Source of the DNA: a virus
Reading direction: 5' to 3' (one strand)
DNA length: 64,000 nucleotides
IMG/VR virus record: IMGVR_UViG_3300025276_000020
Shown: piece by piece, positions 22,365 to 63,022 of the stretch
Layout: every line of letters begins with the position of its first letter
Numbering within the stretch: position 1 is the stretch's first letter
Position numbers and translations under genes: made by a program
Notes under the pieces: generated by a model
The model's input: the letters and a program-made list of their open reading frames with translations, nothing else
Database searches by the model: none
Told to the model about the DNA's origin: nothing

Positions 22365-22526
22365 TATTATTGTTTACAGCGATAACGCTATTATACACAG
22401 AGATGATCTTGCTGTCAAGCACTTTCGCAGAAAGAGTGAGAATACCATGTACATTACTACTACCCAATCTAGTATTATTCTTAAGAGCGATAACTCTATT
22501 ATACAGTCCGTTTCATGGTTTGTCAA
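22362..22526 (-). repeat. Two 36-bp direct repeats (108-bp period), each under a minus-strand TTGACA-17-TATAAT promoter
   Basis: 22362-22397 vs 22470-22505 match at 32/36; minus-strand promoters at 22390-22418 and 22498-22526. Confidence 0.8.
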
Positions 22527-22578: not shown

Positions 22579-22607
22579 TTGACATGGCATGTTCTTTCAG
22601 CTATAAT
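22579..22607 (+). promoter_or_regulatory. Sigma70 consensus promoter for gp55
   Basis: TTGACA-17-TATAAT. Confidence 0.85.
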
Positions 22608-26020: not shown

Positions 26021-26203
26021 ATGAATGTGTCTGATAGGCTGAGTTGGCTAGAAGATGAACATAAACGAGTGCATAAACTTATAGAATGTGCTGAAGCTGA
26101 AAAAGCACCTGATGGATTTGTGACAAAATTGAAGAAGGATAAACTTATGTTAAAAGATGAAATGAATGTTCTGCGTACTAAAGTAGTGGACATGTATACA
26201 TGA
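26021..26203 (+). CDS. Small coiled-coil protein, DUF465/YdcH-like
   Basis: LEDEHKRVH...LKKDKLMLKDEM pattern; AGGAG SD. Confidence 0.6.
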   Translation: MNVSDRLSWLEDEHKRVHKLIECAEAEKAPDGFVTKLKKDKLMLKDEMNVLRTKVVDMYT

Positions 26204-26910
26204 TTTTCATGTTTGATGTTGATGGTACGCTAACACCTAGTCGTGGCAGAATGGACAAGGACTTCTCATTGTGGTTTGGTTCATTCTGTCATGATCACGA
26301 TGTATACGTAGTTACAGGAAGTGATCGACCTAAAACAGAAGAGCAGTTGGGTAAAGACATCTACTCTAAATTAAAGGGCGCATATCAGTGTAGTGGTAAT
26401 GACCACTGGATTGGTGATAAAAGAATAAGAACTTCAGAATTTGAGGATTTGCCTAATGATGAACTACATAACGCATTGAATGTCGAACTCTCAGTATCTA
26501 AGTTTTACATAAGAACAGGATGTCATATCGAGATACGTCCTGGTTTATTAAACTTCTCTATCGTAGGGCGCAATGCCAACGATCAACAACGCAAAGATTA
26601 TGTTGAGTATGATGAGATTCACAATGAGCGCAATATTATAGCAGAACACCTAAGAAATAAATTTACTGGTTACAATTTTCAAGTGGCAGGTGAGACTGGC
26701 ATAGATATTGTTAAAAAAGGTGAAGGCAAAGAACAGGTCTTGACAGACTTCGATAAAGATGCTATAATACATTTTTACGGTGATAAAACCTTTCCCGGTG
26801 GGAATGATCACGATATTGCTATGGAAGTACGAGCTAGAGGAAATGATGCCGTACAAGTTGATGATTGGAGACACACATGGAAATTACTAAAAGAGAAATG
26901 CAAACAGTAG
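26200..26910 (+). CDS. HAD-IIB phosphomannomutase-like enzyme (eukaryotic PMM type)
   Basis: FDVDGTLT, VTGSD, IEIRPGLLNFSIVGRNA, FYGDKTFPGGNDH. Confidence 0.85.
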   Translation: MIFMFDVDGTLTPSRGRMDKDFSLWFGSFCHDHDVYVVTGSDRPKTEEQLGKDIYSKLKGAYQCSGNDHWIGDKRIRTSEFEDLPNDELHNALNVELSVSKFYIRTGCHIEIRPGLLNFSIVGRNANDQQRKDYVEYDEIHNERNIIAEHLRNKFTGYNFQVAGETGIDIVKKGEGKEQVLTDFDKDAIIHFYGDKTFPGGNDHDIAMEVRARGNDAVQVDDWRHTWKLLKEKCKQ

Positions 26911-27326
26911 GATTCACAGCTAGTACTTTCGACTTGCTTCATGCGGGTCATGTTGCTATGCTACGTGAGGCTAAAGATCAATGTGACTATTTGATCTGTG
27001 GTTTGCAAATTGATCCTAGCGTAGACAGACCAGAAAAGAACAGTCCTATACAAACTATAGTAGAACGTTATTCACAGCTATCAGCTATCAAGTATGTTGA
27101 TGAGATTCTGGTGTATGCCACTGAACAAGACTTACTCGATATCTTAACTATGCACAAAATTGATGTCAGAATTCTTGGAGTAGAGTACAAAGATAAAGAG
27201 TTTACTGGTAGAGATTTGTGTGATACTCTAGGCATGGATTTATACTTTAACAGCAGAGAGCATAGATTTTCAACCAGTGACTTACGTAAGCGAGTTGTGT
27301 CTGCTGAATCGGACTTTAATAAATGA
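26898..27326 (+). CDS. Glycerol-3-phosphate cytidylyltransferase-like (TagD-type) nucleotidyltransferase
   Basis: FDLLHAGH (HIGH motif), CDYLICGL, RFSTSDLR; start moved to ATG 26898. Confidence 0.85.
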   Translation: MQTVGFTASTFDLLHAGHVAMLREAKDQCDYLICGLQIDPSVDRPEKNSPIQTIVERYSQLSAIKYVDEILVYATEQDLLDILTMHKIDVRILGVEYKDKEFTGRDLCDTLGMDLYFNSREHRFSTSDLRKRVVSAESDFNK

Positions 27327-28408
27327 AGATACTCTTACCCTACTCAACTCACTTCGAGGTAGTGAAGACTCAAGACTCGGATAGTCCTGTCATCACTGGC
27401 GGTATTGAAAAGTTCTGCCAAGACCTAGAGCGAAATATTGACGGTATCATACCGTTGTGTATCACTAAAGATGATAAAGATAATCGTAATACCAAGCGCA
27501 AGATTAGAGATGCGATTGCTATGCATAATCCAGATATGATCTTATTCAACAATCCCTGGTGGGGAAACATGATGAGAACATTCGGTGTTCCATTAATTTC
27601 TATTATGCATGAACCACTTGTGCGTGACATACGTATGGTAGAACTAGGCACAATACTGAGAGATTTGAATGACTATGGCGCACATATTTGGTTTGTAAGT
27701 TCCCGCCAGTTAGATTTTCATAGAGATATGTCAAAGAGAATCAAGAATGTTGACTTTGGTGAAATTAAAGGTTTCATAAATCCTTCATATCTACCATACG
27801 ATATGCCCATTTCTTCTGAAACGACATATGATGTATCAACAGTAGGTAGATGTGATAATGAGAAGGCACCATTTCTTATACATGATAAGCTTAAAAATAC
27901 TGACCTAAATAGTCTTGTGATGACAAACGATGGAGTTTACAAAAGCGATACAGTCAACGATTACGTGGCATCTAATCAGCACTGGTCTGAGCCTCAGTAT
28001 ACTATGCGTGGATTGCCACACTCTGACGTTATGAAAATGATATCTAAGTCTAAAGTTTTCTGTTCTACTTGGCCAAAAGAATCTTGGGGAATAACTACAA
28101 TGGAAGCTTTAGGTTGTGGAGTGCCAGTTATTCTGTTTACTGATGATAGCGATGCACATGCAAGTGAAGAGATTGCGGCACACCGCACACATTATATCAA
28201 AGTAAATAGAAAGTGTTCAAGGGCTGAGTTTGAAACAACTGTACGGGAATTCGCTAATGTGATGAAAAACCGTAGAGATGAAATAGCTGAGATGACTAGG
28301 AGAAAGCACAGCCTAGCTAATTGGAAATTAGGTATTGACAAAATGCTTCAGATGAGATATAATGATAAGAATAAAACATATTCAGATTTAACGGAGTTTT
28401 TTACATGA
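27323..28408 (+). CDS. GT-B fold glycosyltransferase (GT4-like)
   Basis: TGGIEKF N-terminal loop, VGRCDNEK, ESWGITTMEALGCGVPVI signature. Confidence 0.85.
   Translation: MKILLPYSTHFEVVKTQDSDSPVITGGIEKFCQDLERNIDGIIPLCITKDDKDNRNTKRKIRDAIAMHNPDMILFNNPWWGNMMRTFGVPLISIMHEPLVRDIRMVELGTILRDLNDYGAHIWFVSSRQLDFHRDMSKRIKNVDFGEIKGFINPSYLPYDMPISSETTYDVSTVGRCDNEKAPFLIHDKLKNTDLNSLVMTNDGVYKSDTVNDYVASNQHWSEPQYTMRGLPHSDVMKMISKSKVFCSTWPKESWGITTMEALGCGVPVILFTDDSDAHASEEIAAHRTHYIKVNRKCSRAEFETTVREFANVMKNRRDEIAEMTRRKHSLANWKLGIDKMLQMRYNDKNKTYSDLTEFFT
28335..28363 (+). promoter_or_regulatory. Sigma70 consensus promoter inside the GT4 gene, driving the next gene
   Basis: TTGACA-17-TATAAT 41 nt upstream of the next start. 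Confidence 0.75.
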
Positions 28409-29919
28409 GCGGACATAAGGTAGAAGAAAGTTCAAATTACGATAACTATATGGAAGCTGATGCACGTAAGAATGATACTTACAGCATTGGCTTGGACAAG
28501 TTTTTCGATGAACCTCTGCCTGTCGTACTTCAAGATATGACTAAGGCAAAGAGTTCTTTAGAGTCTGATGTTTGGAAAGCAGTCAAGGTACACTTTCGCA
28601 ACCTAGAAGATGTTGTAGATTTCTGTACCAAACTCAATCAGATGATGCCAAACAAGTCTGCTTACTATCCTCTTATTGACCCATCTTTAAGTCTATTCGG
28701 ACTAGATGAGGTTGATGATGTACCAGTTACTATAGATGCGTCAAAGCTATCGTCAAAATATAAAAATGCAGATGTTGATATTCCAGAAGATGATAAAATC
28801 TGGAAAGAACATTGGGTTGGAATGCCAGAGTTCGTTCAAGATGAGAATGGTTCTTATAGAACTATTACCGTGAAGTTCAGACGCAAAGAAGACTACGATG
28901 ACTTTTCTACAAAGATCGATCAAGATGTAACTGACAAAACTAAGAGTATGTGGCATCCAAAACTTAACGTGACAAAGAACCTTAAGTTAAGATGGGTACA
29001 AGAAAGTCGTACTAATCCAGAGCATCCGATGTATATCGTCTCTAAGGGTCGTGCTGATACGATGATCACTTCTAGATCATTTGCACGTATGCATATTCCT
29101 CACTATATCGTAATTGAGCCACAAGATGAGGCACTATATGAGGAAGCACTAGACAATTTTGATATTCGCCAATACGTCACACTTTTAGTCGCACCATTTT
29201 CCAATCACGGTGATGGACCTGGTCGTGCTAGAAATTGGGCATGGGATCATTCTCTGACAATTGGTGCGACTAGTCACTGGGTATTTGATGATAACATTTC
29301 AGACTTTTATAGACTACACAATAATGAGCGTATTAGATTTGAGAGTGGTGTTGGCTTTAAAGTTATGGAAGACTTTGTAGATCGTTACGATAACGTCTAC
29401 ATTGCTGGACCACAATACAGATTCTTTATTGCTCCAGATCAGAGTTATCCTGCTTATGTTGCCAACACTAGAATTTATTCTGCCCTTTTGATACGCAATG
29501 ATTGCAAGCACAGATGGCGTGGTCGTTATAATGAAGATACGGATATATGTTTGCGGGTTATGAAAGACGGTGATGTGTGTCTACAGTTCAATGCTTTTCT
29601 ACAAGGTAAATGTGCTACTCAGACTGTTGCCGGAGGTAATACCGCTGAGTTCTATCATGCTGAGAACACTGAGAACGAGGAGTTCAAAGAGAGTGGGTAC
29701 AATACAGAAGGTACTGTTAATAAGTCCCAGATGTTAGTAGATATGCATCCTGATGTGGCTAGACTTGTCTGGCGTTACGGTAGATGGCATCACTGGGTCG
29801 ACTATAGTCCTTTCAAAGTAAACAAGCTGAAGCTACGAGAAAGCGTGGTGTTACCATCTGGTACAAATAACTATAGCATGGAATTGAAGAGAGATTTTGA
29901 TTGGAAAAATGCAAAATAA
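28405..29919 (+). CDS. GREB1/TET-associated (TAGT)-like GT-A glycosyltransferase with duplicated N-terminal domain
   Basis: YIVSKGRAD, GPGRARNWAWDH, WVFDDNI, RIYSALLI, WRGRYNEDTDICLR, TQTVAGGNT. Confidence 0.75.
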   Translation: MSGHKVEESSNYDNYMEADARKNDTYSIGLDKFFDEPLPVVLQDMTKAKSSLESDVWKAVKVHFRNLEDVVDFCTKLNQMMPNKSAYYPLIDPSLSLFGLDEVDDVPVTIDASKLSSKYKNADVDIPEDDKIWKEHWVGMPEFVQDENGSYRTITVKFRRKEDYDDFSTKIDQDVTDKTKSMWHPKLNVTKNLKLRWVQESRTNPEHPMYIVSKGRADTMITSRSFARMHIPHYIVIEPQDEALYEEALDNFDIRQYVTLLVAPFSNHGDGPGRARNWAWDHSLTIGATSHWVFDDNISDFYRLHNNERIRFESGVGFKVMEDFVDRYDNVYIAGPQYRFFIAPDQSYPAYVANTRIYSALLIRNDCKHRWRGRYNEDTDICLRVMKDGDVCLQFNAFLQGKCATQTVAGGNTAEFYHAENTENEEFKESGYNTEGTVNKSQMLVDMHPDVARLVWRYGRWHHWVDYSPFKVNKLKLRESVVLPSGTNNYSMELKRDFDWKNAK

Positions 29920-30613: not shown

Positions 30614-30967
30614 ATGGCTTACGTATCACAAGAAGACAAAAAACAACTTGCTCCTGCTATCAAAGCAGTGCTTAAAGAGTTTGGCATGAAGGGCAGTATC
30701 TCTGTCCGTAACCACTCAACATTAGTTGTTAATCTTAAAAAGGGCGAAGTAGACTTTGGCGATGCCCATTATCAAGTAAACACTTACTGGATTGATGATC
30801 ACTTCGCTGAGAAGCCAGTAGCCAAGAAGTTCCTTAACAAGCTTCTTGATGCTATGAAAGGTCCTAGCTACTTCAACGATGATGATGCCATGACCGACTA
30901 CTTTAGCCGTTCGCATTACACTGACATCAACATTGGTCAGTGGAACAAATCTTACGAACTAGTATAA
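30614..30967 (+). CDS. Conserved hypothetical early phage protein
   Basis: MAYVSQEDKKQLAPAIKAVLK...DDAMTDYF; own promoter. Confidence 0.7.
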   Translation: MAYVSQEDKKQLAPAIKAVLKEFGMKGSISVRNHSTLVVNLKKGEVDFGDAHYQVNTYWIDDHFAEKPVAKKFLNKLLDAMKGPSYFNDDDAMTDYFSRSHYTDINIGQWNKSYELV

Positions 30968-31431
30968 TGAGTATCGCTTCCAGACCGGAAATTAGCGGTG
31001 CCTCAGCAACCGCAAAAGAGAAGTTCTTCAATGAGGGATATTCTCTTCCGACATGCATAAACAGTGGATGTATTCGCCCGGTTCAAGTTAGATGTTGGAC
31101 TAACTGGTCATTCAAGACCGAGTGTGGCACATGTTACAAAGCAAGAGCGACTGGTATCAAAGGCAAGGCAATGGAAGGCATTGTTATACACAAGAAGCAA
31201 TTCTGTGAAAACCATGATTCCCATTTAGGCTGGAAATGTCCAGTACCTAAAGCAAGCTGGCTCAAGTTGGGCATGTTACAGTCTTTAGATTTAGAACACG
31301 TTGACGGTAATCACGATAACAATGATCCCGAAAACGTTAAGACGATATGTAAATTGTGTCATGCTAAGAAGTCTATGAAGTACGGCGACTTCAGTAACAG
31401 GAAAGCTTCTGCAAGAAAAATTACACATTAA
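30967..31431 (+). CDS. HNH endonuclease with Cys-rich N-terminus
   Basis: LDLEHVDGNHDNNDPENVKTICKLCH; start at the ATG overlapping the previous stop. Confidence 0.8.
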   Translation: MSIASRPEISGASATAKEKFFNEGYSLPTCINSGCIRPVQVRCWTNWSFKTECGTCYKARATGIKGKAMEGIVIHKKQFCENHDSHLGWKCPVPKASWLKLGMLQSLDLEHVDGNHDNNDPENVKTICKLCHAKKSMKYGDFSNRKASARKITH

Positions 31432-31818: not shown

Positions 31819-32462
31819 TGAAGAAAGGCAGAAAAGATTTTATTTTTGATTTAGAGACGATAGGGGCAAATGTTTTTCACTGCCCCGTTGTCGATGTCGC
31901 ATATACCACATTTGAGTGGGATAGATTTGCTGAAGAGCCATATACCTTCGAAGAGGTTGCAGGTACCGTTCAGACTTTAAAGGCTGATGTTAACGATCAG
32001 ATGCAGAATTATGGCACTAAGTTTAACAAGGCTGATGTTGAGTGGTGGGAAAGACTTCCTAAACTTGCACGTGATAAGTTGAACAGGACAGAAAATGACT
32101 TGACAGTCGTAGAGTTTTGTGATACAATACTAGCTTATCTTAGAGAACAAAGAAACGTTGATTATTGGTGGTCACGTGGCAATACGTTTGACCCAGTTAT
32201 ACTTAACAGGCTAATGCTTGCGACAGATAACATGCCAACGATGGATCAGTATCTTAAGTTCTATAAGGTTAGGGATGTTCGTAGTCACATCGATGCCAAG
32301 TTTGATTACACTACACGTAATGGTTTCGTACCTGTGAGTGATGAGTCTTATTGGTCGACAGCGTTCATTGCACACGATAGCTCTCATGATGTTGCGGCTG
32401 ATGTTATGAGACTTCAAACAATATACAGAGCCGAGAACGACATGGAGCAAACTGCCCGATGA
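31818..32462 (+). CDS. dexA: DexA-like 3'-5' exonuclease (DEDDh)
   Basis: FDLETIG, WSRGNTFDP, RDVRS, HDSSHDVAAD. Confidence 0.82.
   Translation: MKKGRKDFIFDLETIGANVFHCPVVDVAYTTFEWDRFAEEPYTFEEVAGTVQTLKADVNDQMQNYGTKFNKADVEWWERLPKLARDKLNRTENDLTVVEFCDTILAYLREQRNVDYWWSRGNTFDPVILNRLMLATDNMPTMDQYLKFYKVRDVRSHIDAKFDYTTRNGFVPVSDESYWSTAFIAHDSSHDVAADVMRLQTIYRAENDMEQTAR
32100..32128 (+). promoter_or_regulatory. Internal sigma70-like promoter in dexA
   Basis: TTGACA-17-TACAAT. Confidence 0.55.
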
Positions 32463-32899
32463 ATGACAATTTTGAAGCCGCTAAGAGTGGCGCCCAACGT
32501 GAAGCACTCGGTGTACCTTATATGCGACAGCTCCCTCTTGAGGGTCTTGCCGCAGGTGCCGCCGCACTTGAATACGGTGCAATGAAGTATGCAGATAGAA
32601 ACTGGGAAAAGGGTTTACCTTGGCAACAAATGATTGATAGTCTTAAACGACACATCGATGATTTTGAGCGAAGAAACGACTATGATGATGGACCCAGTGG
32701 TTCGGGACTACATCATGTTTGTATGATAATGGCAGGTGCTCTAATGCTATCCAGTTCGGTTATAAGAGGCATCGGTGAAGATGATCGTATGCCTGAGTTA
32801 GATGGTGGTGCCTTGACTGCTAAAGACTGCGCTAAGTTCATAAGTGACCAATTAAAATTAGCTGAGGATTTAACACAAGCAAGGAGTAAGATGAAATAA
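32459..32899 (+). CDS. dATP/dGTP diphosphohydrolase-domain protein (DUF5664-like)
   Basis: LEYGAMKYADRNWEKG...SLKRH...SGLHH. Confidence 0.75.
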   Translation: MNDNFEAAKSGAQREALGVPYMRQLPLEGLAAGAAALEYGAMKYADRNWEKGLPWQQMIDSLKRHIDDFERRNDYDDGPSGSGLHHVCMIMAGALMLSSSVIRGIGEDDRMPELDGGALTAKDCAKFISDQLKLAEDLTQARSKMK

Positions 32900-32974: not shown

Positions 32975-33625
32975 ATGAAATTTAGCAATGATACCTTGAG
33001 TATCCTCAAGAACTTTTCGACTATCAATCCCAGTGTTGTTTTTAAACCTGGATCGACTATTCGAACAATATCCCCACAAAAGACTGTGATGGCAGCGGCT
33101 ACAATTGGTGAAACAGTTGAGCAACAGGCAGGTGTTTATGACTTGTCTCGCTTCTTAAGCACTCTCGCATTATTCGAGAATCCAGAAGTCGTTTTCGGTA
33201 CAGATCGTTTTACTATTAAGGGTGGTAAAAGCGAACTCCGATACACTTACACTTCTGAATCGTTGATTGTAACACCGCCGGAGAAGGACATTGTTGTTCC
33301 TGATCCTGAAGTGTCTGTCAACATTACCTGGCAAGCTATAGATAGCGTACTGCGTGCCGCAGGCGTTCTACAGTTACCAGAAATCGCTTTCATCGGTGAT
33401 GGAAATAGTGTTACTATTTCTGCCGTAGACAGCAAAACATCTACTGCTGACAACTATAATACAGTTGTTGCTGAAGGTGTGAACACTGAGCCCTTTAACA
33501 TGATTATCAAAACAGATAATCTTAAACTAGTACCAACCGACTACGAGGTCACATTGTCTTCTAAAGGTATGGCACACTTTAAATCCGATAAAGTCCAATA
33601 CTGGATTGCAATCGAATCTCGTTAA
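32975..33625 (+). CDS. gp45: Sliding clamp gp45
   Basis: LKNFSTINPS, GVYDLSRFL, YWIAIE; TATAAATA at 32924. Confidence 0.95.
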   Translation: MKFSNDTLSILKNFSTINPSVVFKPGSTIRTISPQKTVMAAATIGETVEQQAGVYDLSRFLSTLALFENPEVVFGTDRFTIKGGKSELRYTYTSESLIVTPPEKDIVVPDPEVSVNITWQAIDSVLRAAGVLQLPEIAFIGDGNSVTISAVDSKTSTADNYNTVVAEGVNTEPFNMIIKTDNLKLVPTDYEVTLSSKGMAHFKSDKVQYWIAIESR

Positions 33626-35958: not shown

Positions 35959-36534
35959 ATGAAGGATTATACTATGATTAGAGATAATGATATGCTTGCC
36001 GCTATCAACATGATAGAAGACAGCGAGTTGAAGATATTCAAACTTTTTCCAGAAGCCCATATGCCTATATACGGCACAGAATGGTCAGCTTGTTTTGATC
36101 TAAAAGCGTCTATTCGTCCTACAGATACCTTAACAGTTTATGGACAATCCAATGAGAAGCGCAAGTCTGTCATTGATCCTAATAATGGTAAAGGTTGCGT
36201 ACTATACTCAGGAGAAAGAGTATTAGTTCCTACGGGGCTAGTCTTTGATCTCACTGAAGATCAATCCCTACGCATTCATCCACGTTCAGGCTTAGCTTGG
36301 AAATCTGGTATTACAGTAGCAAACTGTGAAGGTGTTGTCGATGCTGACTACGTTCAACAGACCTATGTGATGCTACAGAACATTTCTGATCAACCATTTA
36401 TGATACGTGACGGTGATCGTATTGCTCAGGCAGAGATCGTTAAAAACAATAGAGTGTGGTTTATTGAAACTACTATTGAGCCTAAAGAAAAGACTGATCG
36501 AACAGGTGGTCTTGGCTCTACAGGAGTTCAGTGA
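35959..36534 (+). CDS. dut: Trimeric dUTPase
   Basis: ACFDL, PRSGLA, GVVDADY, GDRIAQ, RTGGLGSTG. Confidence 0.92.
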   Translation: MKDYTMIRDNDMLAAINMIEDSELKIFKLFPEAHMPIYGTEWSACFDLKASIRPTDTLTVYGQSNEKRKSVIDPNNGKGCVLYSGERVLVPTGLVFDLTEDQSLRIHPRSGLAWKSGITVANCEGVVDADYVQQTYVMLQNISDQPFMIRDGDRIAQAEIVKNNRVWFIETTIEPKEKTDRTGGLGSTGVQ

Positions 36535-38826: not shown

Positions 38827-41334
38827 TTGAGTTTTTATACTTGCGTTAATCGCTACGGCAATAACATATTGTTCCGTGGCTACAATGATGATGGCAAACC
38901 CATCATGAAGAAATTCCCATTCAAGCCAACGATGTACGTTCCTTCTACTAAGGGACCTGGTGAATGGAAGGGCTTTGATGGTGCTTCAGTTGAGCCTATT
39001 CAACTTGATTCTATGTCAGAAGCCACAGAGTTCAATAAGAGATACGAGGGCGTTGACAATTTTAAGATATATGGCAACAACAATTATGTAGCTCAGTTCA
39101 TCGCTGATAAGTATCCTGGCATAGTACCCTACGATCTAAAGCGTATCAATGTCGGTAATATAGATATTGAGGTCGCATCTGATGATGGTTTCCCCGAGCC
39201 TGGTGAAGCAAAGCATCCAATTATTTCTATCGCATACAAGAGCAGTACTTCTAAAGTGTATCACGTTTGGGGTTTAGGTGAATGGAGACTAGAAGACTGT
39301 GAGCTTGATCTAGATGGCTACATGGTTCAATATCGCCTATGTACTGATGAGTCCGACCTCATGCTTAAGTTCTTAACTTTCTGGCATGCCAATTGTCCAG
39401 ATATTATCACTGGTTGGAATATTCGACTATTCGATATCCCCTACATGATAAACAGAACTACTCGTATTCTTGGCGATAAGATCGTTAAGCAGTTCTCGCC
39501 TTTCGGTATTACGAAATATCGACAGATCGGCATCAAGGGTAAAGACATGGATGCTTATGAGATATATGGTGTTCAGCAAGTAGATTACTTTGACCTGTTT
39601 CAGAAATTTGGTTTTACATATGGCAATCAAGCATCTTATGCTCTAGATAATATTGCCGCTGTTGTTCTAGGTACCAAGAAGCTGTCTTATTCTGAGTACG
39701 GTTCTTTACACGGTTTGTACAAAGCTAATCACCAGAAGTTCATCGACTATAATATTCGTGATGTTCAGGTAGTAGATCAGATTGACATACAGACTGGTCT
39801 TATGGACTTGGCGTTGATCGTTGCATACAAGGGCGGTGTAAACTATAACGATGCATTCGGTACAACTGGCATATGGGATTCAATCATCTATCGATATCTC
39901 AGTGAGCGAAAGATCGCTGTTCCACCTTCGGTACGCAAACATAAAGAATCGTATCCTGGTGGTTATGTTAAAGAGCCTAAGGTAGGCATGACTGAATGGG
40001 TAACATCATTTGACCTTAACTCACTATATCCCAATCTGATTGTTCAGTACAACATGTCACCCGAGACTTTAGTTTCAGGTGGTGATGACTTTACTGCAAG
40101 TGGTGTTGAGCATTATCTCAATAACCCAATACGTGAAGATGTACGTGAGCGTGATCTATCTGTTGCTGTCAACGGTTCTATGTATCGTAAAGACGTTCGT
40201 GGTGTATTACCTACGATCATTATTGGTCTGTACGATGAGAGACGTGGCATCAAAAACGAGATGCTTTCCCTCAAGTCAGAATACGAGAAGAAGAAGTCTC
40301 CAGAGATGTTGAGAGAAATAAATAGACTTGAGAATACTCAGCAGGCTGTTAAGATTTTGCTTAACTCGCTTTATGGTGCATTAGGCAATCAATACTTCAG
40401 ATACTTCGATATGAGAATTGCAGAGGGCATTACGCTGTCTGGTCAGTTGTCTATCAAGTGGGCTGAGAAAGCCATGAACAAGGCATTGAATACTATTCTC
40501 AAATCTGATGATGAAGACTATGTTATCGCTATGGATACTGACTCTTTATACGTGAACATGGGACCTCTTGTTGATGCAGTCAAACCAACAGATCCCGTAA
40601 AGTTCATCGATCAAGCATGTGAGCAAAAGCTTGTGCCTCTTCTACAGAAGTCGTACAATGATATGTTTACTCAAATGAATGCTTATGAAAATAGAATGGT
40701 TATGGCACGTGAAGCTATCGCAGATAAGGGTATCTGGATGGCAAAGAAACGCTATATACTTAACGTTCATAATAATGAGGGTGTACAGTACGCAGAGCCT
40801 AAGCTTAAAGTTATGGGTATCGAGGCTGTGAAATCATCAACTCCTCAAGTTGTGCGTGATAAGTTTAAAAAGGCTTACAGCATCATGCTAAATTCTACAG
40901 AAGTAGAACTACAGTCATTCGTGGCTGACTTCTATGAAGAGTTCAAATCTTTGCCAGCAGAGGACGTATCGTTTCCTCGTGGTGTCAGCGACATCAATAA
41001 ATGGAATGATAAGCATACGATATACAAGAAAGGTACTCCTATCCACGTCAGAGGTGCTTTACTTTTCAATAAGCTTATGAAAGAAAAGAAGCTGTCTATG
41101 GAAGAGATTAAGAATGGTAGTAAGGTTAAGTTTTGTTACATGAAGATGCCTAATCCTTTAATGGAGAACATCATATCTTTCCCACAGTTCTTGCCAAAAG
41201 AGTTTGACTTAGATAGTCATATTGATTATGATATGCAATTCAACAAAACATTCAAAGACCCATTGAAGATGGTATCTGACGCCATAAACTGGGAACTTGA
41301 ATACATAAACACATTAGAAGGATTTTTCTCATGA
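38827..41334 (+). CDS. gp43: Family B DNA polymerase gp43
   Basis: Exonuclease DIEV and GWNIRLFD; FDLNSLYP, KILLNSLYGALG, MDTDS. Confidence 0.98.
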   Translation: MSFYTCVNRYGNNILFRGYNDDGKPIMKKFPFKPTMYVPSTKGPGEWKGFDGASVEPIQLDSMSEATEFNKRYEGVDNFKIYGNNNYVAQFIADKYPGIVPYDLKRINVGNIDIEVASDDGFPEPGEAKHPIISIAYKSSTSKVYHVWGLGEWRLEDCELDLDGYMVQYRLCTDESDLMLKFLTFWHANCPDIITGWNIRLFDIPYMINRTTRILGDKIVKQFSPFGITKYRQIGIKGKDMDAYEIYGVQQVDYFDLFQKFGFTYGNQASYALDNIAAVVLGTKKLSYSEYGSLHGLYKANHQKFIDYNIRDVQVVDQIDIQTGLMDLALIVAYKGGVNYNDAFGTTGIWDSIIYRYLSERKIAVPPSVRKHKESYPGGYVKEPKVGMTEWVTSFDLNSLYPNLIVQYNMSPETLVSGGDDFTASGVEHYLNNPIREDVRERDLSVAVNGSMYRKDVRGVLPTIIIGLYDERRGIKNEMLSLKSEYEKKKSPEMLREINRLENTQQAVKILLNSLYGALGNQYFRYFDMRIAEGITLSGQLSIKWAEKAMNKALNTILKSDDEDYVIAMDTDSLYVNMGPLVDAVKPTDPVKFIDQACEQKLVPLLQKSYNDMFTQMNAYENRMVMAREAIADKGIWMAKKRYILNVHNNEGVQYAEPKLKVMGIEAVKSSTPQVVRDKFKKAYSIMLNSTEVELQSFVADFYEEFKSLPAEDVSFPRGVSDINKWNDKHTIYKKGTPIHVRGALLFNKLMKEKKLSMEEIKNGSKVKFCYMKMPNPLMENIISFPQFLPKEFDLDSHIDYDMQFNKTFKDPLKMVSDAINWELEYINTLEGFFS

Positions 41335-46795: not shown

Positions 46796-47595
46796 CTGTC
46801 AGATTTAAAAGTTTTATTACCGAAAGCGTTGGCGCTAAGGGACTAGCATACGAGAAGAAAGTTTTCGATGCGATGAAGTCTGCGGGCATTGAAGGACTAA
46901 ATGTTGGAAGTAAGCCAGGCGCAGGATACAGTAACCAAGGCGCAGGTGATATTGAAGCATTATATAACGGTAAAGAATTCAATATCGAAATCAAGCTGGA
47001 TAAGAACGCTCAAATGGGTGGTACTTCTATTCGCATTGATACGTTAAACAAGACACACACGCTAGTCAAGCCCGATGCGGTAGACGAAGACGCTATTCCC
47101 TTCTTTATAGAAGCGGCTAAGAAGCAAGACAAGGCACTAAAGGATTGGGTCAACTTCGTTCGTAAGCAAGAGCCACTAGCATTACATAAAAAGATTCCGT
47201 ATACTATTCCATTTGGATCAGTAACAAAAGAAGCATGGTCAGCGGCACAGAAAGCTGGATATCTTGCGAAGATGAATACCATTCAGTCTTTTGATTCAGC
47301 AAGAACTATCGCAAAAGCATACAATAGAAAGAATGTGTACTACATTCAGATTGGTAAAGCAGGACTGTTTTATCTAGGCAGTAATCCATTGAAGCTAGAT
47401 GTGCCTGAGTATAAAGGCTCTGTGAATATCGAGTTCAGACTTGGACCATCTGGAAGTAAAGCGAGAAAAGTTGAAGGCGAAGATTATCGTGTTGTCGGTG
47501 CTGGATATAGATGTCAAGGTAGATTAAAAACAAATATCAAATCTAAGTATAGCCTTGATAATCCCGAAGACATAAAAAAGTTATTTGGAGTATAA
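46792..47595 (+). CDS. Putative PD-(D/E)xK restriction-like endonuclease
   Basis: GLAYEKKV ... GAGDIEA ... NIEIK; YYIQIG; FKSFITE N-terminus. Confidence 0.6.
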   Translation: MTVRFKSFITESVGAKGLAYEKKVFDAMKSAGIEGLNVGSKPGAGYSNQGAGDIEALYNGKEFNIEIKLDKNAQMGGTSIRIDTLNKTHTLVKPDAVDEDAIPFFIEAAKKQDKALKDWVNFVRKQEPLALHKKIPYTIPFGSVTKEAWSAAQKAGYLAKMNTIQSFDSARTIAKAYNRKNVYYIQIGKAGLFYLGSNPLKLDVPEYKGSVNIEFRLGPSGSKARKVEGEDYRVVGAGYRCQGRLKTNIKSKYSLDNPEDIKKLFGV

Positions 47596-47596
47596 C

Positions 47597-48829
47597 ATGA
47601 TACGCTTATCGTCATTTTTGACTGAAGACAAGAATACTCATATGGAACACCTCGAAGATAATCTGCTGAACGCAGGTGTCGATGGTGCTAGGGAGTCTAT
47701 CAACTACCTAAGAGCATTGCGAGATATGTTGGCTGGTAAATCTAAAGCTAAGGTCAATGTGACTGTAAAGTGGGATGGAGCACCAGCAGTATTTGCTGGT
47801 ATTGATCCGACTGATGGCAAGTTCTTTGTTGCTAAGAAGGGTATCTTTAATAAGAATCCTAAAGTATACAAGACTAATAAAGATATCGATGATGATATCG
47901 CAAAGGGTGATTTGAATATAAAAATGAAGTTGGCGTTAAAGAACTTGCCAGCATTGAATATTAAGGGGGTGATACAGGGTGATTTCTTATATGCGAAAAA
48001 GGATATCAAAAAGGTTAGTGTTGATGGAGAATCGTATATTACTTTCCATCCTAATACCATTGTTTATGCGATACCAGCGAAAAGCAAGCTTGCTTCACAA
48101 ATCCTCAGATCCGAGATCGGTGTGGTTTGGCACACTGAATACAGAGGTAAATCTTTTGAATCAATGTCAGCAAGTTTTGGAAAAGAGATCGCAAGCAATC
48201 TCAAAAAATCGACAGGCGTCTGGTCGGTAGACGCTATCTACAAAGACATGAGTGGTGATGCCACTATGACACAGAAAGAAACTGATGCAGTAACAAAACT
48301 TCTATCTCAAGCTGGCAAGAAATTCAACACTATTAAAAAGTCTACCTTCGACGGAATCACAGAGAACGAAGAACTTCTCACTAGAGTTAAGACGTTTGTT
48401 AATGTGAAAGTACGAGCTGGTGAAAAGATCAAAGATCCTGCATCATTTGTCAGTGAGCTTATGGACTTCATCTATGCATACTACCAGAAAGAGATTGATA
48501 AGCTTAAGTCTGAAAAGGGTAAAGAAAAGAAGACCGCTAAACGTACAGAGATACTATCATACTTTTCCAATACTGATAAGAGCCAAATCGTTGCGCTATT
48601 CGAGCTATACAATTTGATTGTTGAGGCTAAGTTGACTATCATACGTAAACTTGATAGAGCTAAGAACGTTGGCACATTCTTGAAAACGGCAGACGGATAC
48701 AAAGTGACTGAGCAAGAAGGCTTCGTTGCTATTGATCGTATGGGCAAGAACGCAGTAAAGCTGGTAGATAGATTGCAGTTCAGTAACGCCAACTTCAATT
48801 CAGAGTACATCAAAGGCTGGCAGAAGTAG
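47597..48829 (+). CDS. DUF6267-like protein with RNA-ligase-type nucleotidyltransferase motifs
   Basis: KNTHMEHLED, TVKWDGAP, QGDFL, EGFVA, VKLVDR; ATG 47597 after GGAG. Confidence 0.65.
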   Translation: MIRLSSFLTEDKNTHMEHLEDNLLNAGVDGARESINYLRALRDMLAGKSKAKVNVTVKWDGAPAVFAGIDPTDGKFFVAKKGIFNKNPKVYKTNKDIDDDIAKGDLNIKMKLALKNLPALNIKGVIQGDFLYAKKDIKKVSVDGESYITFHPNTIVYAIPAKSKLASQILRSEIGVVWHTEYRGKSFESMSASFGKEIASNLKKSTGVWSVDAIYKDMSGDATMTQKETDAVTKLLSQAGKKFNTIKKSTFDGITENEELLTRVKTFVNVKVRAGEKIKDPASFVSELMDFIYAYYQKEIDKLKSEKGKEKKTAKRTEILSYFSNTDKSQIVALFELYNLIVEAKLTIIRKLDRAKNVGTFLKTADGYKVTEQEGFVAIDRMGKNAVKLVDRLQFSNANFNSEYIKGWQK

Positions 48830-50218: not shown

Positions 50219-53200
50219 ATGGACGATATAGAAGACACTAAACCTGTTGAGAAGAAGGTTGTCAAGAAAAAGGCTAAAGCTAAGTTAGATAAAGAAAACG
50301 AAGTTTTAGTAAAGAACACTATTGATATCAATCCCACTCTAGACGAAGCGGTCGATAAGACTGTAGTTCTTGGATGGGGCAGAATGAATCCCATCACTGT
50401 TGGACATGAGAAGCTAGTCAACAAGATTAAAGCTGTTGCACGTAAAGCTTCCGCAGTCCCAAAAGTTTACATATCTCATACACAGGATGCTAAAAAGAAT
50501 CCTTTGGCGTATGACGATAAGATCATGCTTGCCAAGAAAGCATTCGGCAACAATGTGATCGAGAAGTCTAAATCCAAGACTATTATCCAAATCATGCAAG
50601 AGCTACAGTCAAAGTACTCTAAAGTCATCTTGGTTGTAGGTTCAGACAGAATCAAGCAATTTGACGAACTACTCAATAAATATAACGGTAAAGACTACAA
50701 GTTTGATAACATTGAAGTTGTATCTGCTGGTGATCGTGATCCAGATGCCGATGACGTTTCGGGCATGTCTGCATCTAAAATGAGATTATTGGCATCTCAA
50801 GGCGACATGAAGAAGTTCACAACTGGACTACCTAAGAAATTACAGAGAGATGCAGAAGACATCTACGATTTGGTTCGTGGTGGATTAAAGATCGCTGAAG
50901 AGATGGAACTAGACGAAGCAGTTCTAACAGTACAGCAACGCCGTAATCGTGGCATTGTAATGCGTAAGTATAAAAACAAGATTGCCGCCGCACGTAAGCG
51001 TCTGTCTAAAAAAGCCGCAACTATGACTATGCTGAAGTCTCGTGCGAGAAAGGCCGCTATCAAGATTATTCGTAAGAAGATCGCTGGTAAGAAAGGCGAA
51101 AAGTATGCATCACTTTCTCCCTCAGAAAAGATGATGATTGACAAGAGAGTTTCTAAGAAGAAGGCAGCTATCGATAAGATTGCTAAGAAGATCCTTCCTA
51201 GTGTGCGTAAAGCAGACCTAGCTAGATTAAACAGCAAGAGCAAGAATGAGGAGTTTAACGAGCAATTCGAAAGACTATTTGAAGCTCCAAGTGTTGGTCA
51301 AGATAAAGATATTGCTGATCGTAAAGGCACACAGCCTGCAGTGTATCACAAAGGTCTTGCTAAGTCAACTAAAGTAAAACGTGACGCACATTTCAAGAAG
51401 GGCGCTGAAATGAATGACGATAATCCTGCCGCATATGAGCCAGCTCCTGGCGATGCACAGGCTAAAACTAAGACATCGAAGCACACTAAAAAATATGATC
51501 AAATGTATGGTGAAGCGTTCGAGCCTCATATGATGTATGACCCAAAGACTGGAAAAAGTTACAAAGCTGATAAAGAAGAAGATCATCTTCGTATGAAGAA
51601 AATGGGATACACTCATGAGAAGCCTGTTGAAGAGCAAAAAAACTGTGGATGTGGTAAAACTCCGTGCGAGACATACGGTAAAGTAAACGAGACTTTTGAA
51701 GAGTTTGTAGTAAATCAACAGTTCGATGAAGAGTTCGAATCTCCTAAAGTGCAAAGATTTCATCAGATGTTTAAGAAAGACGGTAAAATAAAATTAGACG
51801 CTAGATTTCGTGCATTCAAGAAAAAGACTCCAGAAGCTCAAGAATTAGAAGAGATAGCTATCAATACTGATGCAGAAAAGACTCTAAAGAAGCACCACAA
51901 AGATGAACGAAATAATCTGAGTCGAGAGCATGAGCGTGAGATGGACGGTTTACTGACACGTGAATTACGTAAGAAAGTTCGTTCAATAAACAGACCCGAG
52001 ACCAGAAATGAAGAGTTCGATTGTGATGCTGATCTGATATCTTTCATCGAAGAGACCTCTAATGACATCTTTAATCAAGTATTACTAGACGAAGAGAAGG
52101 GTAATGAAGGTTTAAAAAAGAAAGCAGAGAAGTCTGGAATGCCATTGAGTGTTCTAAAGAAAGTTTATGACAGAGGTATTGCCGCATGGAGAACTGGTCA
52201 CAGACCTGGTACTACTCCTCAACAATGGGGCTTTGCACGTGTTAACTCTTTCATTACTAAATCATCTGGTACATGGGGTAAAGCTGACGCAGACCTTGCC
52301 GCTAAAGTACGTAAAGAAGAAGTTGATCTAGAAGAAGGCGCAGTATCTCCTGCACAAAGAGCCGCAATTGCTATCTCTAAGAAAGAGAAAGCTGGCAAGC
52401 CAGGATACGACAGCGAAGGCAAATCAATTAAAGAAGACGACCCTTGTTGGGACTCTCATGAGCAAAAAGGCATGAAGAAGAAAAACGGCAAGCTAGTTCC
52501 TAATTGTGTACCGAAAGAAAGTGTAGATGAATCCTTTGAAAATCTATTTATGGAGAAAAGTCCAACCGAGATGATCAAAGATAAGTTAGGTCTAAAGCTA
52601 TATAAAACACAATACCAACACGCACTTAAAACACTAAAAGATTTAATCTCTAGAAAGAAAAAAGAGACTACTGGACCAAAAGGCAGTATGCGACATGACG
52701 TAGGTTACTACGCCGCACAGATCGCTAGAAGCTACAAAAACGTTGACTCTAAGCTATTAGCGAAGATGGTAACCGAAGAGGGTGGAGCTGGAGACAAAGG
52801 TACTGATAAAGTTACTAAGCGTTACAAGAAAGATACTCCTGGACAAAGTATTAACGAATCATTTGATGAGATGTTCAGTGAAGACGTTACGCAGAAGCAG
52901 TTGCAAGACCTAGAGAAGTTTGGTGATCGACTACTTGCTAAATTCAAAATCGATATCGAATTCACTAGACACTTTGCAGATCGTATGAACGATTCACGTA
53001 ACAAGCCTGCAATCACTGTGGCAGAGTTGCAAAAAGTGTTTAAGAAAATTGCTAAGAGAAAAGCAGTAGAGATCAGACAGAATCCAGATAGTGAAGCTGT
53101 ATTAAAAGACATGCAAGCTGACTTGAATCTGCCTATCGTAATCAACTATAATAAAGATAAAGACGAGTATGAAGTAGTTAACAAGACTATCATGCGTAAG

Positions 53201-53239
53201 AAAAACTTTGGCACATCAGATAAAGTAATTAAAGTATGA
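50219..53239 (+). CDS. Modular 1006-aa protein: N-terminal HIGH-type nucleotidyltransferase plus many small modules
   Basis: GRMNPITVGH, VVGSDR, SAGDRDPD, GMSASKMR; repeated (L/I/V/F)xE linkers; TATAAATA at 50126. Confidence 0.75.
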   Translation: MDDIEDTKPVEKKVVKKKAKAKLDKENEVLVKNTIDINPTLDEAVDKTVVLGWGRMNPITVGHEKLVNKIKAVARKASAVPKVYISHTQDAKKNPLAYDDKIMLAKKAFGNNVIEKSKSKTIIQIMQELQSKYSKVILVVGSDRIKQFDELLNKYNGKDYKFDNIEVVSAGDRDPDADDVSGMSASKMRLLASQGDMKKFTTGLPKKLQRDAEDIYDLVRGGLKIAEEMELDEAVLTVQQRRNRGIVMRKYKNKIAAARKRLSKKAATMTMLKSRARKAAIKIIRKKIAGKKGEKYASLSPSEKMMIDKRVSKKKAAIDKIAKKILPSVRKADLARLNSKSKNEEFNEQFERLFEAPSVGQDKDIADRKGTQPAVYHKGLAKSTKVKRDAHFKKGAEMNDDNPAAYEPAPGDAQAKTKTSKHTKKYDQMYGEAFEPHMMYDPKTGKSYKADKEEDHLRMKKMGYTHEKPVEEQKNCGCGKTPCETYGKVNETFEEFVVNQQFDEEFESPKVQRFHQMFKKDGKIKLDARFRAFKKKTPEAQELEEIAINTDAEKTLKKHHKDERNNLSREHEREMDGLLTRELRKKVRSINRPETRNEEFDCDADLISFIEETSNDIFNQVLLDEEKGNEGLKKKAEKSGMPLSVLKKVYDRGIAAWRTGHRPGTTPQQWGFARVNSFITKSSGTWGKADADLAAKVRKEEVDLEEGAVSPAQRAAIAISKKEKAGKPGYDSEGKSIKEDDPCWDSHEQKGMKKKNGKLVPNCVPKESVDESFENLFMEKSPTEMIKDKLGLKLYKTQYQHALKTLKDLISRKKKETTGPKGSMRHDVGYYAAQIARSYKNVDSKLLAKMVTEEGGAGDKGTDKVTKRYKKDTPGQSINESFDEMFSEDVTQKQLQDLEKFGDRLLAKFKIDIEFTRHFADRMNDSRNKPAITVAELQKVFKKIAKRKAVEIRQNPDSEAVLKDMQADLNLPIVINYNKDKDEYEVVNKTIMRKKNFGTSDKVIKV

Positions 53240-61643: not shown

Positions 61644-62135
61644 TTGATTAGAGGTATATTTGCGTGTGATCGTGAGAATGGCATTGGAAAAAATGGCACT
61701 CTACCATGGCCGCACAACAGTGAAGATTTAAAATGGTTTAAGAGAAGTACCAAAAATTGTGTAGTAGTGATGGGAAGGAGAACTTGGAATGATCCACTTA
61801 TGCCAGCTCCTCTTCCTGATCGCTACAACATAGTATTAACAACTAAAGACCTTAGTACTGGACCTAAAATGTTGTCTGGACCTAATATGATCTTTCAAGA
61901 AGTTGATAGTCTGACTCATACGATGACGCTATTTCAACAAGACGTTTGGGTAATAGGTGGTTCGACTACATTTAAGGCACTAATGCATGTGTGCGAAGAG
62001 TTATGGATAAGCCGTATTAACGGAGTTTACGACTGTGATACACATCTCAGCGATATGTGCGACTATGAATTGTTTCATAAAGAGTATGATGTCGATAAAA
62101 ATTTACGAATCGAAAAGTATAGAAGGTCAATATAG
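61644..62135 (+). CDS. frd: Dihydrofolate reductase
   Basis: GIGKNGTLPW, DLKWFK, VMGRRTW, PLPDRYN, VIGG. Confidence 0.94.
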   Translation: MIRGIFACDRENGIGKNGTLPWPHNSEDLKWFKRSTKNCVVVMGRRTWNDPLMPAPLPDRYNIVLTTKDLSTGPKMLSGPNMIFQEVDSLTHTMTLFQQDVWVIGGSTTFKALMHVCEELWISRINGVYDCDTHLSDMCDYELFHKEYDVDKNLRIEKYRRSI

Positions 62136-63022
62136 TGAAGCAATACTTAGAAGCTATGCAAGACATTATGGACAACGGTGATGAGCGTATGGACCGAACG
62201 GGAACTGGTACTAAAAGTATTTTTGGTTATCAGATGAGGTATGACCTGAGACGAGGGTTTCCAGCTGTTACAACTAAGAAGTTGGCTTGGAAGTCTGTAG
62301 TAGGTGAACTACTGTGGTTCTTAGAAGGCAGTACCGATGAGCGTAGACTAGCAGAGATTACGTTCGGAGAAGATAGGAAAGAGTTATATGACCGTAGTAC
62401 TATATGGACAGCTAATGCTGATAATCAAGGTGTAGCTTTAGGCTATCACAATGACTACATGCACAAAGGGCTTGGTCCAGTTTACGGCTTTCAATGGAGA
62501 AATTTCAACGGCTCAATGTACAATAGTGCGCCGCATCTTCAAGGGACAGACCAGATCACGTGGCTCATCAATGAGATAAAAACAAATCCGGACAGTCGTA
62601 GATTAATTCTAAGTGCATGGAATCCTAATCAGATCGACCAGATGGCTTTACCTCCTTGTCACACTATGTCGCAGTTCTACGTCAACAATGGAAAACTGAG
62701 TTGTCAAATGTATCAGAGAAGCGCAGATATGTTTTTAGGTGTACCCTTTAACATCGCAAGCTATGCTTTATTGACACACATTATAGCGAAAATAACTGGT
62801 CTACAAGTCGGTGATTTCGTCCATACGGTTGGCGATGTACATATATACAATACACACTATGAAGCAGTGAGCGAACAACTAAAGCGCATTCCGCAAAACC
62901 TACCTTCACTACGTATGCCAAAGTTTACTTCACTAGATGAAGTACTAGATTTGGACGTCTCTGACTTCCAGTTAGAGGGATATAAACCAATGAGTGCTAT
63001 CAAAGCAATGATGGCAGTCTAA
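62135..63022 (+). CDS. td: Thymidylate synthase (ThyA type)
   Basis: DRTGTGT, LGPVYG.QWR, LPPCH, YQRSADMFLGVPFNIASY. Confidence 0.97.
   Translation: MKQYLEAMQDIMDNGDERMDRTGTGTKSIFGYQMRYDLRRGFPAVTTKKLAWKSVVGELLWFLEGSTDERRLAEITFGEDRKELYDRSTIWTANADNQGVALGYHNDYMHKGLGPVYGFQWRNFNGSMYNSAPHLQGTDQITWLINEIKTNPDSRRLILSAWNPNQIDQMALPPCHTMSQFYVNNGKLSCQMYQRSADMFLGVPFNIASYALLTHIIAKITGLQVGDFVHTVGDVHIYNTHYEAVSEQLKRIPQNLPSLRMPKFTSLDEVLDLDVSDFQLEGYKPMSAIKAMMAV

Follow-up and report, generated by a model that had tools for sequence, protein, structure and literature searches.

A candidate replication-coupled DNA glycosylation cassette in an uncultured marine T4-like phage

Four overlapping genes between gp46 and gp45

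The window analysed here, the whole 64,000-nucleotide stretch of IMG/VR virus record IMGVR_UViG_3300025276_000020, comes from an uncultured marine T4-like myophage. Our subject is a cluster of four overlapping plus-strand open reading frames (ORFs) between gp46 and gp45, encoding a phosphomannomutase (PMM)-type mutase, a small nucleotidyltransferase, a GT-B glycosyltransferase and a GT-A glycosyltransferase of the TAGT family; we consider it likely that this cassette glycosylates DNA. The major capsid gene of the window shares 75% DNA identity with that of Methylophilales phage Melnitz, and DNA nearly identical to the window was found in marine metagenomes of nine independent studies. The matching sequences are all assembled contigs; no RNA data set and no native nanopore run was listed among them. 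A sequence-only reading had placed the four overlapping genes at 26200-29919 in the replication region. Both points were confirmed by the ORF coordinates and by the families of the flanking genes, which are uvsW, gp55, gp47 and gp46 upstream and gp45, gp44, gp62 and regA downstream. The last two junctions (nucleotidyltransferase/GT-B and GT-B/TAGT) are overlaps of 4 nt, and three other studies yielded contigs with the same four-gene order. None of the four proteins has a membrane segment; all are soluble. Profile searches of each gene, as that reading had suggested, matched PF03332, PF01467, PF00534 and PF20691, respectively.

The last gene (28405..29919, plus strand) encodes a TAGT-family GT-A glycosyltransferase of 504 residues, the conserved core of the cassette (PF20691, 9.6e-39; phrog_842, 8.9e-41). 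The match to PF20691 scored 133.9 bits (cut-off 27.5) and covered profile positions 2-205 of 205, corresponding to protein residues 208-411. In an AlphaFold model built with 38 homologues (pLDDT 83), residues ~125-474 adopt a GT-A fold, and the structural matches of the model were generic GT-A enzymes with Z scores of 12-14. Invariant in the 38 homologues are R274/R276, D295-D296-N297 and E377-D378-T379-D380. These correspond to the R...DDD...EDY/F motifs of tested phage GT-A enzymes, with Asn as the third Asp and Thr in place of Tyr/Phe. The GREB1/TAGT-like identity proposed earlier holds on profile score, fold and invariant motifs. Phage GT-A enzymes bearing R...DDD...EDY/F, recovered from metaviromes, place sugars directly on 5-hydroxymethylcytosine (5hmC) (PMC8256090; bioRxiv 10.1101/2023.12.21.572611), and the T6 TAGT adds a second glucose to glucosyl-hydroxymethylcytosine (PMC13390438).

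Fused at the N-terminus of TAGT are two copies of a ~75-residue accessory module, delimited by alignment (residues ~5-96 and ~125-200; 28417..29004, plus strand). Module 2 exists as a free-standing protein of 85-130 residues in most of 1449 cluster representatives. Judged by these alignments, the N-terminus of the window TAGT is a small free-standing partner protein, here fused and duplicated. The modules matched no Pfam family, gave no structural match above Z 4, and returned nothing in BFVD and nothing useful in the ESM Atlas. TAGT homologues number more than 6700 in metagenomes and occupy 502 loci in IMG/VR; an 88%-identical TAGT is present on a 146-kb contig. Unrelated cultured phages (GD1, henriette, PTm1 and Kuja) also carry homologues within their replication modules. 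A tblastn search at E 1e-5 returned 23 records, with no T-even phage among them.

The preceding gene (27323..28408, plus strand) encodes the GT-B enzyme, a protein of 361 residues matching Glycos_transf_1 (PF00534, 2.4e-7). The earlier label of GT4-like is tentative: the score of 30.9 bits exceeds the gathering cut-off of 26.4, but the match to GT4 families is weak and limited to residues 229-272. The best sequence match in the PDB had an E value of 0.02. Related loci contain 29 GT-B homologues, and none was found in the cultured-phage collection.

The first two genes are the predicted donor genes. The PMM gene (26200..26910, plus strand) encodes a HAD-IIB phosphosugar mutase of 236 residues, predicted to convert a sugar-6- or sugar-7-phosphate to the sugar-1-phosphate. 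It matched PF03332, the eukaryotic-type phosphomannomutase family, at 3.3e-28 (99.5 bits, cut-off 22.4), aligned full length to human PMM2 (residues 3-230) and retains the FDVDGTLT and GDKT..GGNDHEI catalytic motifs, all in agreement with its first assignment as a PMM-type HAD mutase. Only ~6 of 80 related loci have this gene. The nucleotidyltransferase (26865..27326, plus strand; 153 residues) has a small cytidylyltransferase fold (PF01467, 1.5e-13; phrog_7878, 4.8e-33), an HxGH motif and a C-terminal RFSTS, and is predicted to make a nucleoside diphosphate (NDP)-sugar or cytidine diphosphate (CDP)-alcohol donor. Since homologues align from about residue 15, ATG 26877 or ATG 26898 is a likelier start than TTG 26865, which is merely the longest start. 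The name 'TagD-type', given to this protein before, turned out to be too specific. The best NCBIfam match was rfaE_dom_II (2.3e-22; TIGR02199, 79 bits against a cut-off of 181), the heptose-1-phosphate adenylyltransferase domain of RfaE/HldE, and the next was TagD (8.5e-16; TIGR01518, 58 bits against a cut-off of 165). Because both equivalog scores fall far below their cut-offs, the protein was assigned to the superfamily only (PF01467, HxGH). Its closest solved relatives are ECT and TagD.

The PMM-nucleotidyltransferase stretch (window 26026-27437) is 13-16% diverged from contigs of three other studies, whereas gp46, GT-B and TAGT differ by only ~1.5% in those same strains. Within the stretch, one 391-nt piece is swapped for 385 other letters. 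By sequence comparison it looks like a local hot spot of recombination or diversification. A 60%-identical nucleotidyltransferase adjoins a PMM homologue in Acinetobacter phage Ab1-TPeters (PP763253.1, 67964-69182); the DNA polymerase lies upstream of the pair, an exonuclease, a dCTP deaminase and a ParB-like protein are nearby, and there is no TAGT. A second protein of nucleotidyltransferase fold is also present in the window. This 1006-residue protein (50219-53239) combines DUF5824 with a cytidylyltransferase-like domain at its N-terminus (PF01467, 24.6 bits; phrog_3041 'cytidyltransferase', 3e-97); a 414-residue DUF6267 protein (47585-48829) lies upstream of it, and both stand in a block with late promoters.

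Exchange of partners, polymerase-like tails and early promoters

TAGT is the constant element of 79 related IMG/VR loci, usually right after gp46, and the genes in between vary. The gp46-TAGT interval contains a short second TAGT paralogue (c14) in 15 loci, nucleotidyltransferase and GT-B in 8, GT-B alone in 5, nucleotidyltransferase and c14 in 4, and PMM, nucleotidyltransferase and GT-B, as in the window, in 3. Further interval types hold an FkbM/RfbT-type sugar methyltransferase, a kinase-nucleotidyltransferase fusion or a 355-residue protein (c51); the last, an alternative partner, belongs to no Pfam family and has no relation to GT-B detectable by hhalign. A nucleotidyltransferase and/or a partner transferase stands beside TAGT in most related loci. 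A constant transferase accompanied by swappable donor and decorating genes is what would be expected of a glycan on a fixed acceptor, diversified under selection.

The GT-B protein ends in SDLTEFFT (28382..28405, plus strand), a PIP-like tail and putative clamp-binding motif. It resembles NTLEGFFS, the C-terminal tail of the gp43 DNA polymerase of the window (41308..41331, plus strand; gp43 matches phrog_262, 7.5e-302), which was taken as the reference clamp-binding motif. The C-terminal PIP box of T4 and RB69 gp43 binds the gp45 clamp (PMC3012046), and T4 alpha-glucosyltransferase also binds gp45 (Sommer 2004, confirmed in PMC13216743). We scored the tail as an L-x-x-aromatic/hydrophobic pair at the C-terminus in the ORFs of the window and of 80 loci. 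All 29 GT-B homologues and all six full-length gp43 proteins carry it. Among the c14 proteins, short GT-A enzymes, the strict pattern is present in 16/24, and in 24/24 when terminal Ile (seven members) and one variant, IDGFFED, are admitted. Other ORFs show the motif in 20 of 1277 cases (1.6%; Fisher 1e-46 and 1e-21), and the strict form is confined in the window to GT-B and gp43. The folds of GT-B and c14 are unrelated, and the tail was therefore acquired independently by whichever enzyme occupies the partner slot.

The cultured Paraglaciecola Antarctic GD virus 1 (MW805361.1) carries a comparable pair of tails. The last residues of its TAGT (GD1_80) are ...DIEDFMC, and those of the C-terminal piece of its split DNA polymerase (GD1_75) are ...SIDDFM; the tail follows the cognate polymerase. 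As read from these termini, GD virus 1 is an independent replicate of the polymerase-like tail, there on TAGT itself. For the window GT-B, we infer that the docking partner of the tail is the gp45 sliding clamp (32975..33625, plus strand; phrog_223, 5e-70). Complex prediction for the gp45 trimer with the C-terminal half of GT-B gave 0.58, with 0.54 for the control, and was not used as evidence. TAGT of the window has a conserved C-terminus of its own (GM.L..DFDWKN), which we do not claim as a clamp tail; the model folds this segment as a strand.

The window contains 10 perfect sigma-70 promoters (TTGACA-N16-18-TATAAT), compared with 0.06 expected by chance. Those on the plus strand precede gp55, the nucleotidyltransferase, TAGT, two small ORFs, ligase, uvsX and primase. 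By motif match, one perfect early promoter (TTGACA-17-TATAAT; 26740..26768, plus strand) lies inside the PMM gene, upstream of the nucleotidyltransferase and GT-B, and another (28335..28363, plus strand) lies 42 nt 5' of the TAGT start codon. A perfect promoter at most 200 nt upstream of TAGT was found in 18/79 related loci. The late promoter motif TATAAATA does not occur between 19527 and 32924. On the minus strand, two perfect sigma-70 promoters (22390-22418 and 22498-22526) lie in the gap between a 114-residue ORF and gp55, opposing the perfect plus-strand promoter at 22579; this pair could drive an antisense or divergent early transcript.

Immediately around the cassette, a small ORF of 60 residues from the ORF list (26021..26203, plus strand) joins gp46 to the cluster, its 3' end overlapping the PMM start, and its homologues follow gp46 in related loci L015-L017, L019 and L020. 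An HNH endonuclease ORF (30940-31431) lies in a variable stretch just downstream of the cassette and is present only in some relatives, which makes it a possible mobile element with a part in the exchange of cassettes. A MazG-like pyrophosphohydrolase (32459-32899; PF18909, 'dATP/dGTP diphosphohydrolase N-terminal', 7.5e-20) adjoins the cassette in most related loci. No solved relative of this gene was found; if the protein clears a canonical deoxynucleoside triphosphate, it would be relevant to the acceptor question.

Proposed mechanism, acceptor base and rival explanations

The cluster is, in our judgement, probably an early-expressed, replication-coupled DNA glycosylation system. In the proposed mechanism, the PMM-type mutase would convert a phosphosugar (hexose-6-phosphate or heptose-7-phosphate) to the sugar-1-phosphate, from which the nucleotidyltransferase would make the NDP-sugar. 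TAGT, with its two fused modules, would place the first sugar onto a hydroxyl-bearing base of newly made phage DNA, probably using a common host NDP-sugar. GT-B, held at the fork by the polymerase-like tail docked on the gp45 clamp, would extend the glycan with the phage-made donor, probably adding the variable outer sugar. Phage DNA would thereby be shielded from host nucleases, and swapping of donor and partner genes would diversify the glycan. The order of TAGT then GT-B and the identity of the sugars are what we infer by analogy. TAGT is put first because its gene is downstream and conserved and because some loci pair it with a sugar methyltransferase, which can act only on an already attached sugar; in two-GT clusters studied before, the downstream enzyme puts on the first sugar (bioRxiv 10.1101/2023.12.21.572611). 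The sequence-only reading had suggested a phage-made donor with one or two transferases acting on DNA. Clamp-type tails, sigma-70 early promoters and a published 5hmC-heptosylating cassette speak for that proposal, which is kept conditional, no acceptor-making enzyme having been found.

Several results weigh against DNA glycosylation, and the first group concerns the source of the acceptor base. The window, ~40% of the genome, contains no acceptor-making enzyme, only a canonical thymidylate synthase (ThyA, td; 62135..63022, plus strand; PF00303, 5e-105), a dUTPase and a dihydrofolate reductase (DHFR). As had been noted from the sequence, no TET/JBP or methylase is among the window ORFs scanned and no hydroxymethylase was found there. 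The view of td as canonical was also upheld: ALPPCH and YQRSADMFLGVPFN keep the equivalents of the diagnostic residues L143, C146, D169 and N177. D169N and/or N177D mark ThyA homologues that are 5-hydroxy-dCMP or 5-hydroxymethyl-dCMP synthases, and the window ThyA, in which D169, N177 and L143 are kept, is accordingly read as an ordinary dTMP synthase (PMC13326640). No second ThyA-like ORF exists in the six frames of the window, and the dUTPase, DHFR and NrdA are ordinary. The dUTPase-like gene (35959-36534) was considered as a dCTPase and ruled out, being an ordinary trimeric dUTPase; it has an extra N-terminal extension of ~70 residues with no match in solved dUTPases.

The search for TET/JBP and hydroxymethylase was extended to relatives, as the earlier reading had proposed. 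Beyond td, the next 10 kb of the closest relative encode NrdA-Grx, NrdB and dCMP deaminase and no hydroxymethylase; five partial relatives have no ThyA or Tet_JBP matches; and the complete cultured TAGT carriers Aeh1 and GD virus 1 have canonical ThyA only and no Tet_JBP match. The Tet_JBP search found nothing throughout, with controls that did not validate its sensitivity. A weak second ThyA match in Aeh1 was spurious, lying antisense inside gene 47. The Aeh1 enzyme is given in the literature as 'presumably modifies DNA, unknown base' (PMC8056088). No contig above 88 kb with a TAGT came out of two additional IMG/VR scans, one with P0073 and one with ThyA, and 10 long ThyA-bearing IMG/VR contigs have no TAGT. 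About 65% of 25,000 metavirome GT contigs are also without a nearby base-modifying enzyme (PMC8256090; bioRxiv 10.1101/2023.12.21.572611). It is conceivable, though we rate it doubtful, that the marine T4-like lineage together with Aeh1 and GD virus 1 glycosylates DNA at the fork with no known acceptor-making enzyme, the base coming from an unrecognised enzyme or the site lying on canonical DNA. If true, this would amount to a novel acceptor chemistry in DNA hypermodification.

A candidate acceptor synthase occurs in Tenacibaculum phage PTm1, whose TAGT is 42% identical to that of the window. PTm1 (NC_049340.1, 120913-123851) encodes gp165, a 'guanylyltransferase', gp166, a histidine phosphatase, and gp167, a divergent ThyA homologue with both D169N and N177D. 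This cluster lies 29 kb from the PTm1 TAGT and, from its gene content, looks like a base-hydroxylation and sugar-activation unit. In Kuja (Ackermannviridae), the only ThyA is divergent and accompanies two TAGTs. An insert of ~260 residues interrupts the canonical ThyA of PTm1, a single ORF of 527 residues, and ThyA of Pectobacterium phage POP12 is in two pieces ~260 nt apart; these interruptions may be intein, intron or homing-endonuclease insertions.

The second group of contrary points bears on protein as the acceptor. The animal homologue GREB1 O-GlcNAcylates a protein, a transcription factor (PMC7968844). In Vibrio phage 1.076.O, a 48-kb siphophage with no nucleotide-metabolism genes annotated, TAGT lies between portal and head-morphogenesis genes. 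The window TAGT is acidic (pI 5.6), as are most cassette proteins, which makes this property uninformative. O-glycosylation of a phage or host protein, be it replisome or clamp-associated or in the virion, would account for the failure to find a base-hydroxylating enzyme, and a clamp tail could deliver the enzyme to a replisome protein. We nevertheless regard it as unlikely: early and not late promoters count against a virion target, the only tested phage members of the TAGT family act on DNA, and no candidate acceptor protein co-varies with the cassette.

Remodelling of a host surface glycan (O-chain or capsule) during infection, by which auxiliary genes of lipopolysaccharide (LPS) type would block superinfection, is improbable in our estimate. 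Surface glycan synthesis has no use for the polymerase-like tails that both alternative partner transferases carry, the proteins are devoid of membrane segments, and genes for a flippase or polymerase are absent. The TAGT family, which has no known LPS member, recurs in the replication modules of unrelated phages. Such remodelling has been the interpretation of rfaE-like genes, UDP-glucose dehydrogenase and glycosyltransferases in pelagimyophages (PMC7029224), and both PMM and the nucleotidyltransferase belong to families classically known from the synthesis of LPS precursors. Cyanophage PMM homologues occur among auxiliary metabolic genes (AMGs) with no TAGT, some relatives have the FkbM/RfbT-type sugar methyltransferase as partner, and early expression would suit host takeover as well. 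A chance neighbourhood of unrelated accessory genes with no shared pathway, in a hyperplastic gap of a T4-like genome where relatives carry HNH endonucleases and unrelated AMGs and only few loci have PMM, is very improbable given genes that overlap by 4 nt and share promoters, the company of nucleotidyltransferase and/or partner transferase with TAGT in most loci, the adjacent nucleotidyltransferase and PMM in an unrelated Acinetobacter phage, and the four-gene order recurring in three other studies.

T4-like phages with a TAGT are very abundant in the ocean. Should their DNA be glycosylated, restriction- and nanopore-based virome methods would need rethinking, as would the host-defence ecology of streamlined marine bacteria and the published reading of these genes as 'LPS AMGs'. 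Polymerase-like tails would offer a simple mechanism for coupling glycosylation to replication and a sequence signature that separates DNA-directed from surface-glycan glycosyltransferases. New here are the clamp-tail signature, the early promoters, the equivalence of the fused modules to a free small protein, the parallel between the donor genes and a heptosylation cassette already tested, and a candidate acceptor synthase in PTm1, which is a cultured carrier. Aeh1, GD virus 1 and PTm1 are cultured carriers in which the acceptor question can be addressed.

Comparison with known glycosylation systems

The nearest tested analogue is provided by the metavirome 5mYOX/C5-methyltransferase (C5-MT) clusters (Burke et al. 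2021, PMC8256090; Pyle et al. 2023), in particular subclass III 'contig 53' and subclass I. Those clusters, like the window, encode GT-A enzymes bearing R...DD(D/N)...ED motifs and GT-B enzymes; theirs act on DNA, with two successive transferases producing di- or trisaccharides. Reconstitution of a metavirome cassette in which a HAD-kinase fusion accompanies a cytidylyltransferase and a GT-B gave heptosyl- and di-heptosyl-5hmC (Pyle et al. 2023, bioRxiv 10.1101/2023.12.21.572611). Contig 53, which makes heptosyl-5hmC with its HAD-family enzyme, cytidylyltransferase and GT-B, is paralleled by the PMM, the RfaE-II-like nucleotidyltransferase and the GT-B of the window, except that a PMM-type mutase stands where contig 53 has a HAD-kinase fusion (a kinase/phosphatase route). 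Unlike the metavirome clusters, the window has no adjacent methyltransferase, 5mYOX or ThyA-like hydroxylase; its TAGT with two fused modules, its clamp-type tails and its gp46-gp45 site, known here from the genes, also set it apart.

The T-even phages likewise pair a clamp-associated GT-B (T4 alpha-glucosyltransferase) with a TAGT GT-A (the T2/T6 beta-glucosyl-HMC-alpha-glucosyltransferase) that adds a further sugar, and both are early genes. The T-even glucosyltransferase genes lie near genes 46, 47 and 55 on the T4 map. In contrast to the T-evens, the acceptor-making gp42 and the dCTP-excluding gp56 were not found in the window, and the T-evens, which have no donor-synthesis genes of their own, draw on host UDP-glucose.

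A phage-encoded NDP-sugar pathway together with transferases is shared with the arabinosyl-5-hydroxycytosine systems of RB69, DLP3 and HY126, in which an isomerase, a kinase/nucleotidyltransferase and a HAD phosphatase are present and several GT-B enzymes build mono- to tri-saccharides on DNA (PMC13326640). Those systems adjoin a D169N ThyA homologue and use a MurU-type nucleotidyltransferase fused to a kinase, whereas the window has a canonical ThyA (D169, N177), a small HxGH nucleotidyltransferase and a GT-A core transferase. The 'LPS-related' genes of pelagimyophages (Zaragoza-Solas et al. 2020, PMC7029224) come from the same kind of phage and the same families. Host O-chain modification was deduced there from family names alone; in the window, the tails and the position in the replication module point to DNA.

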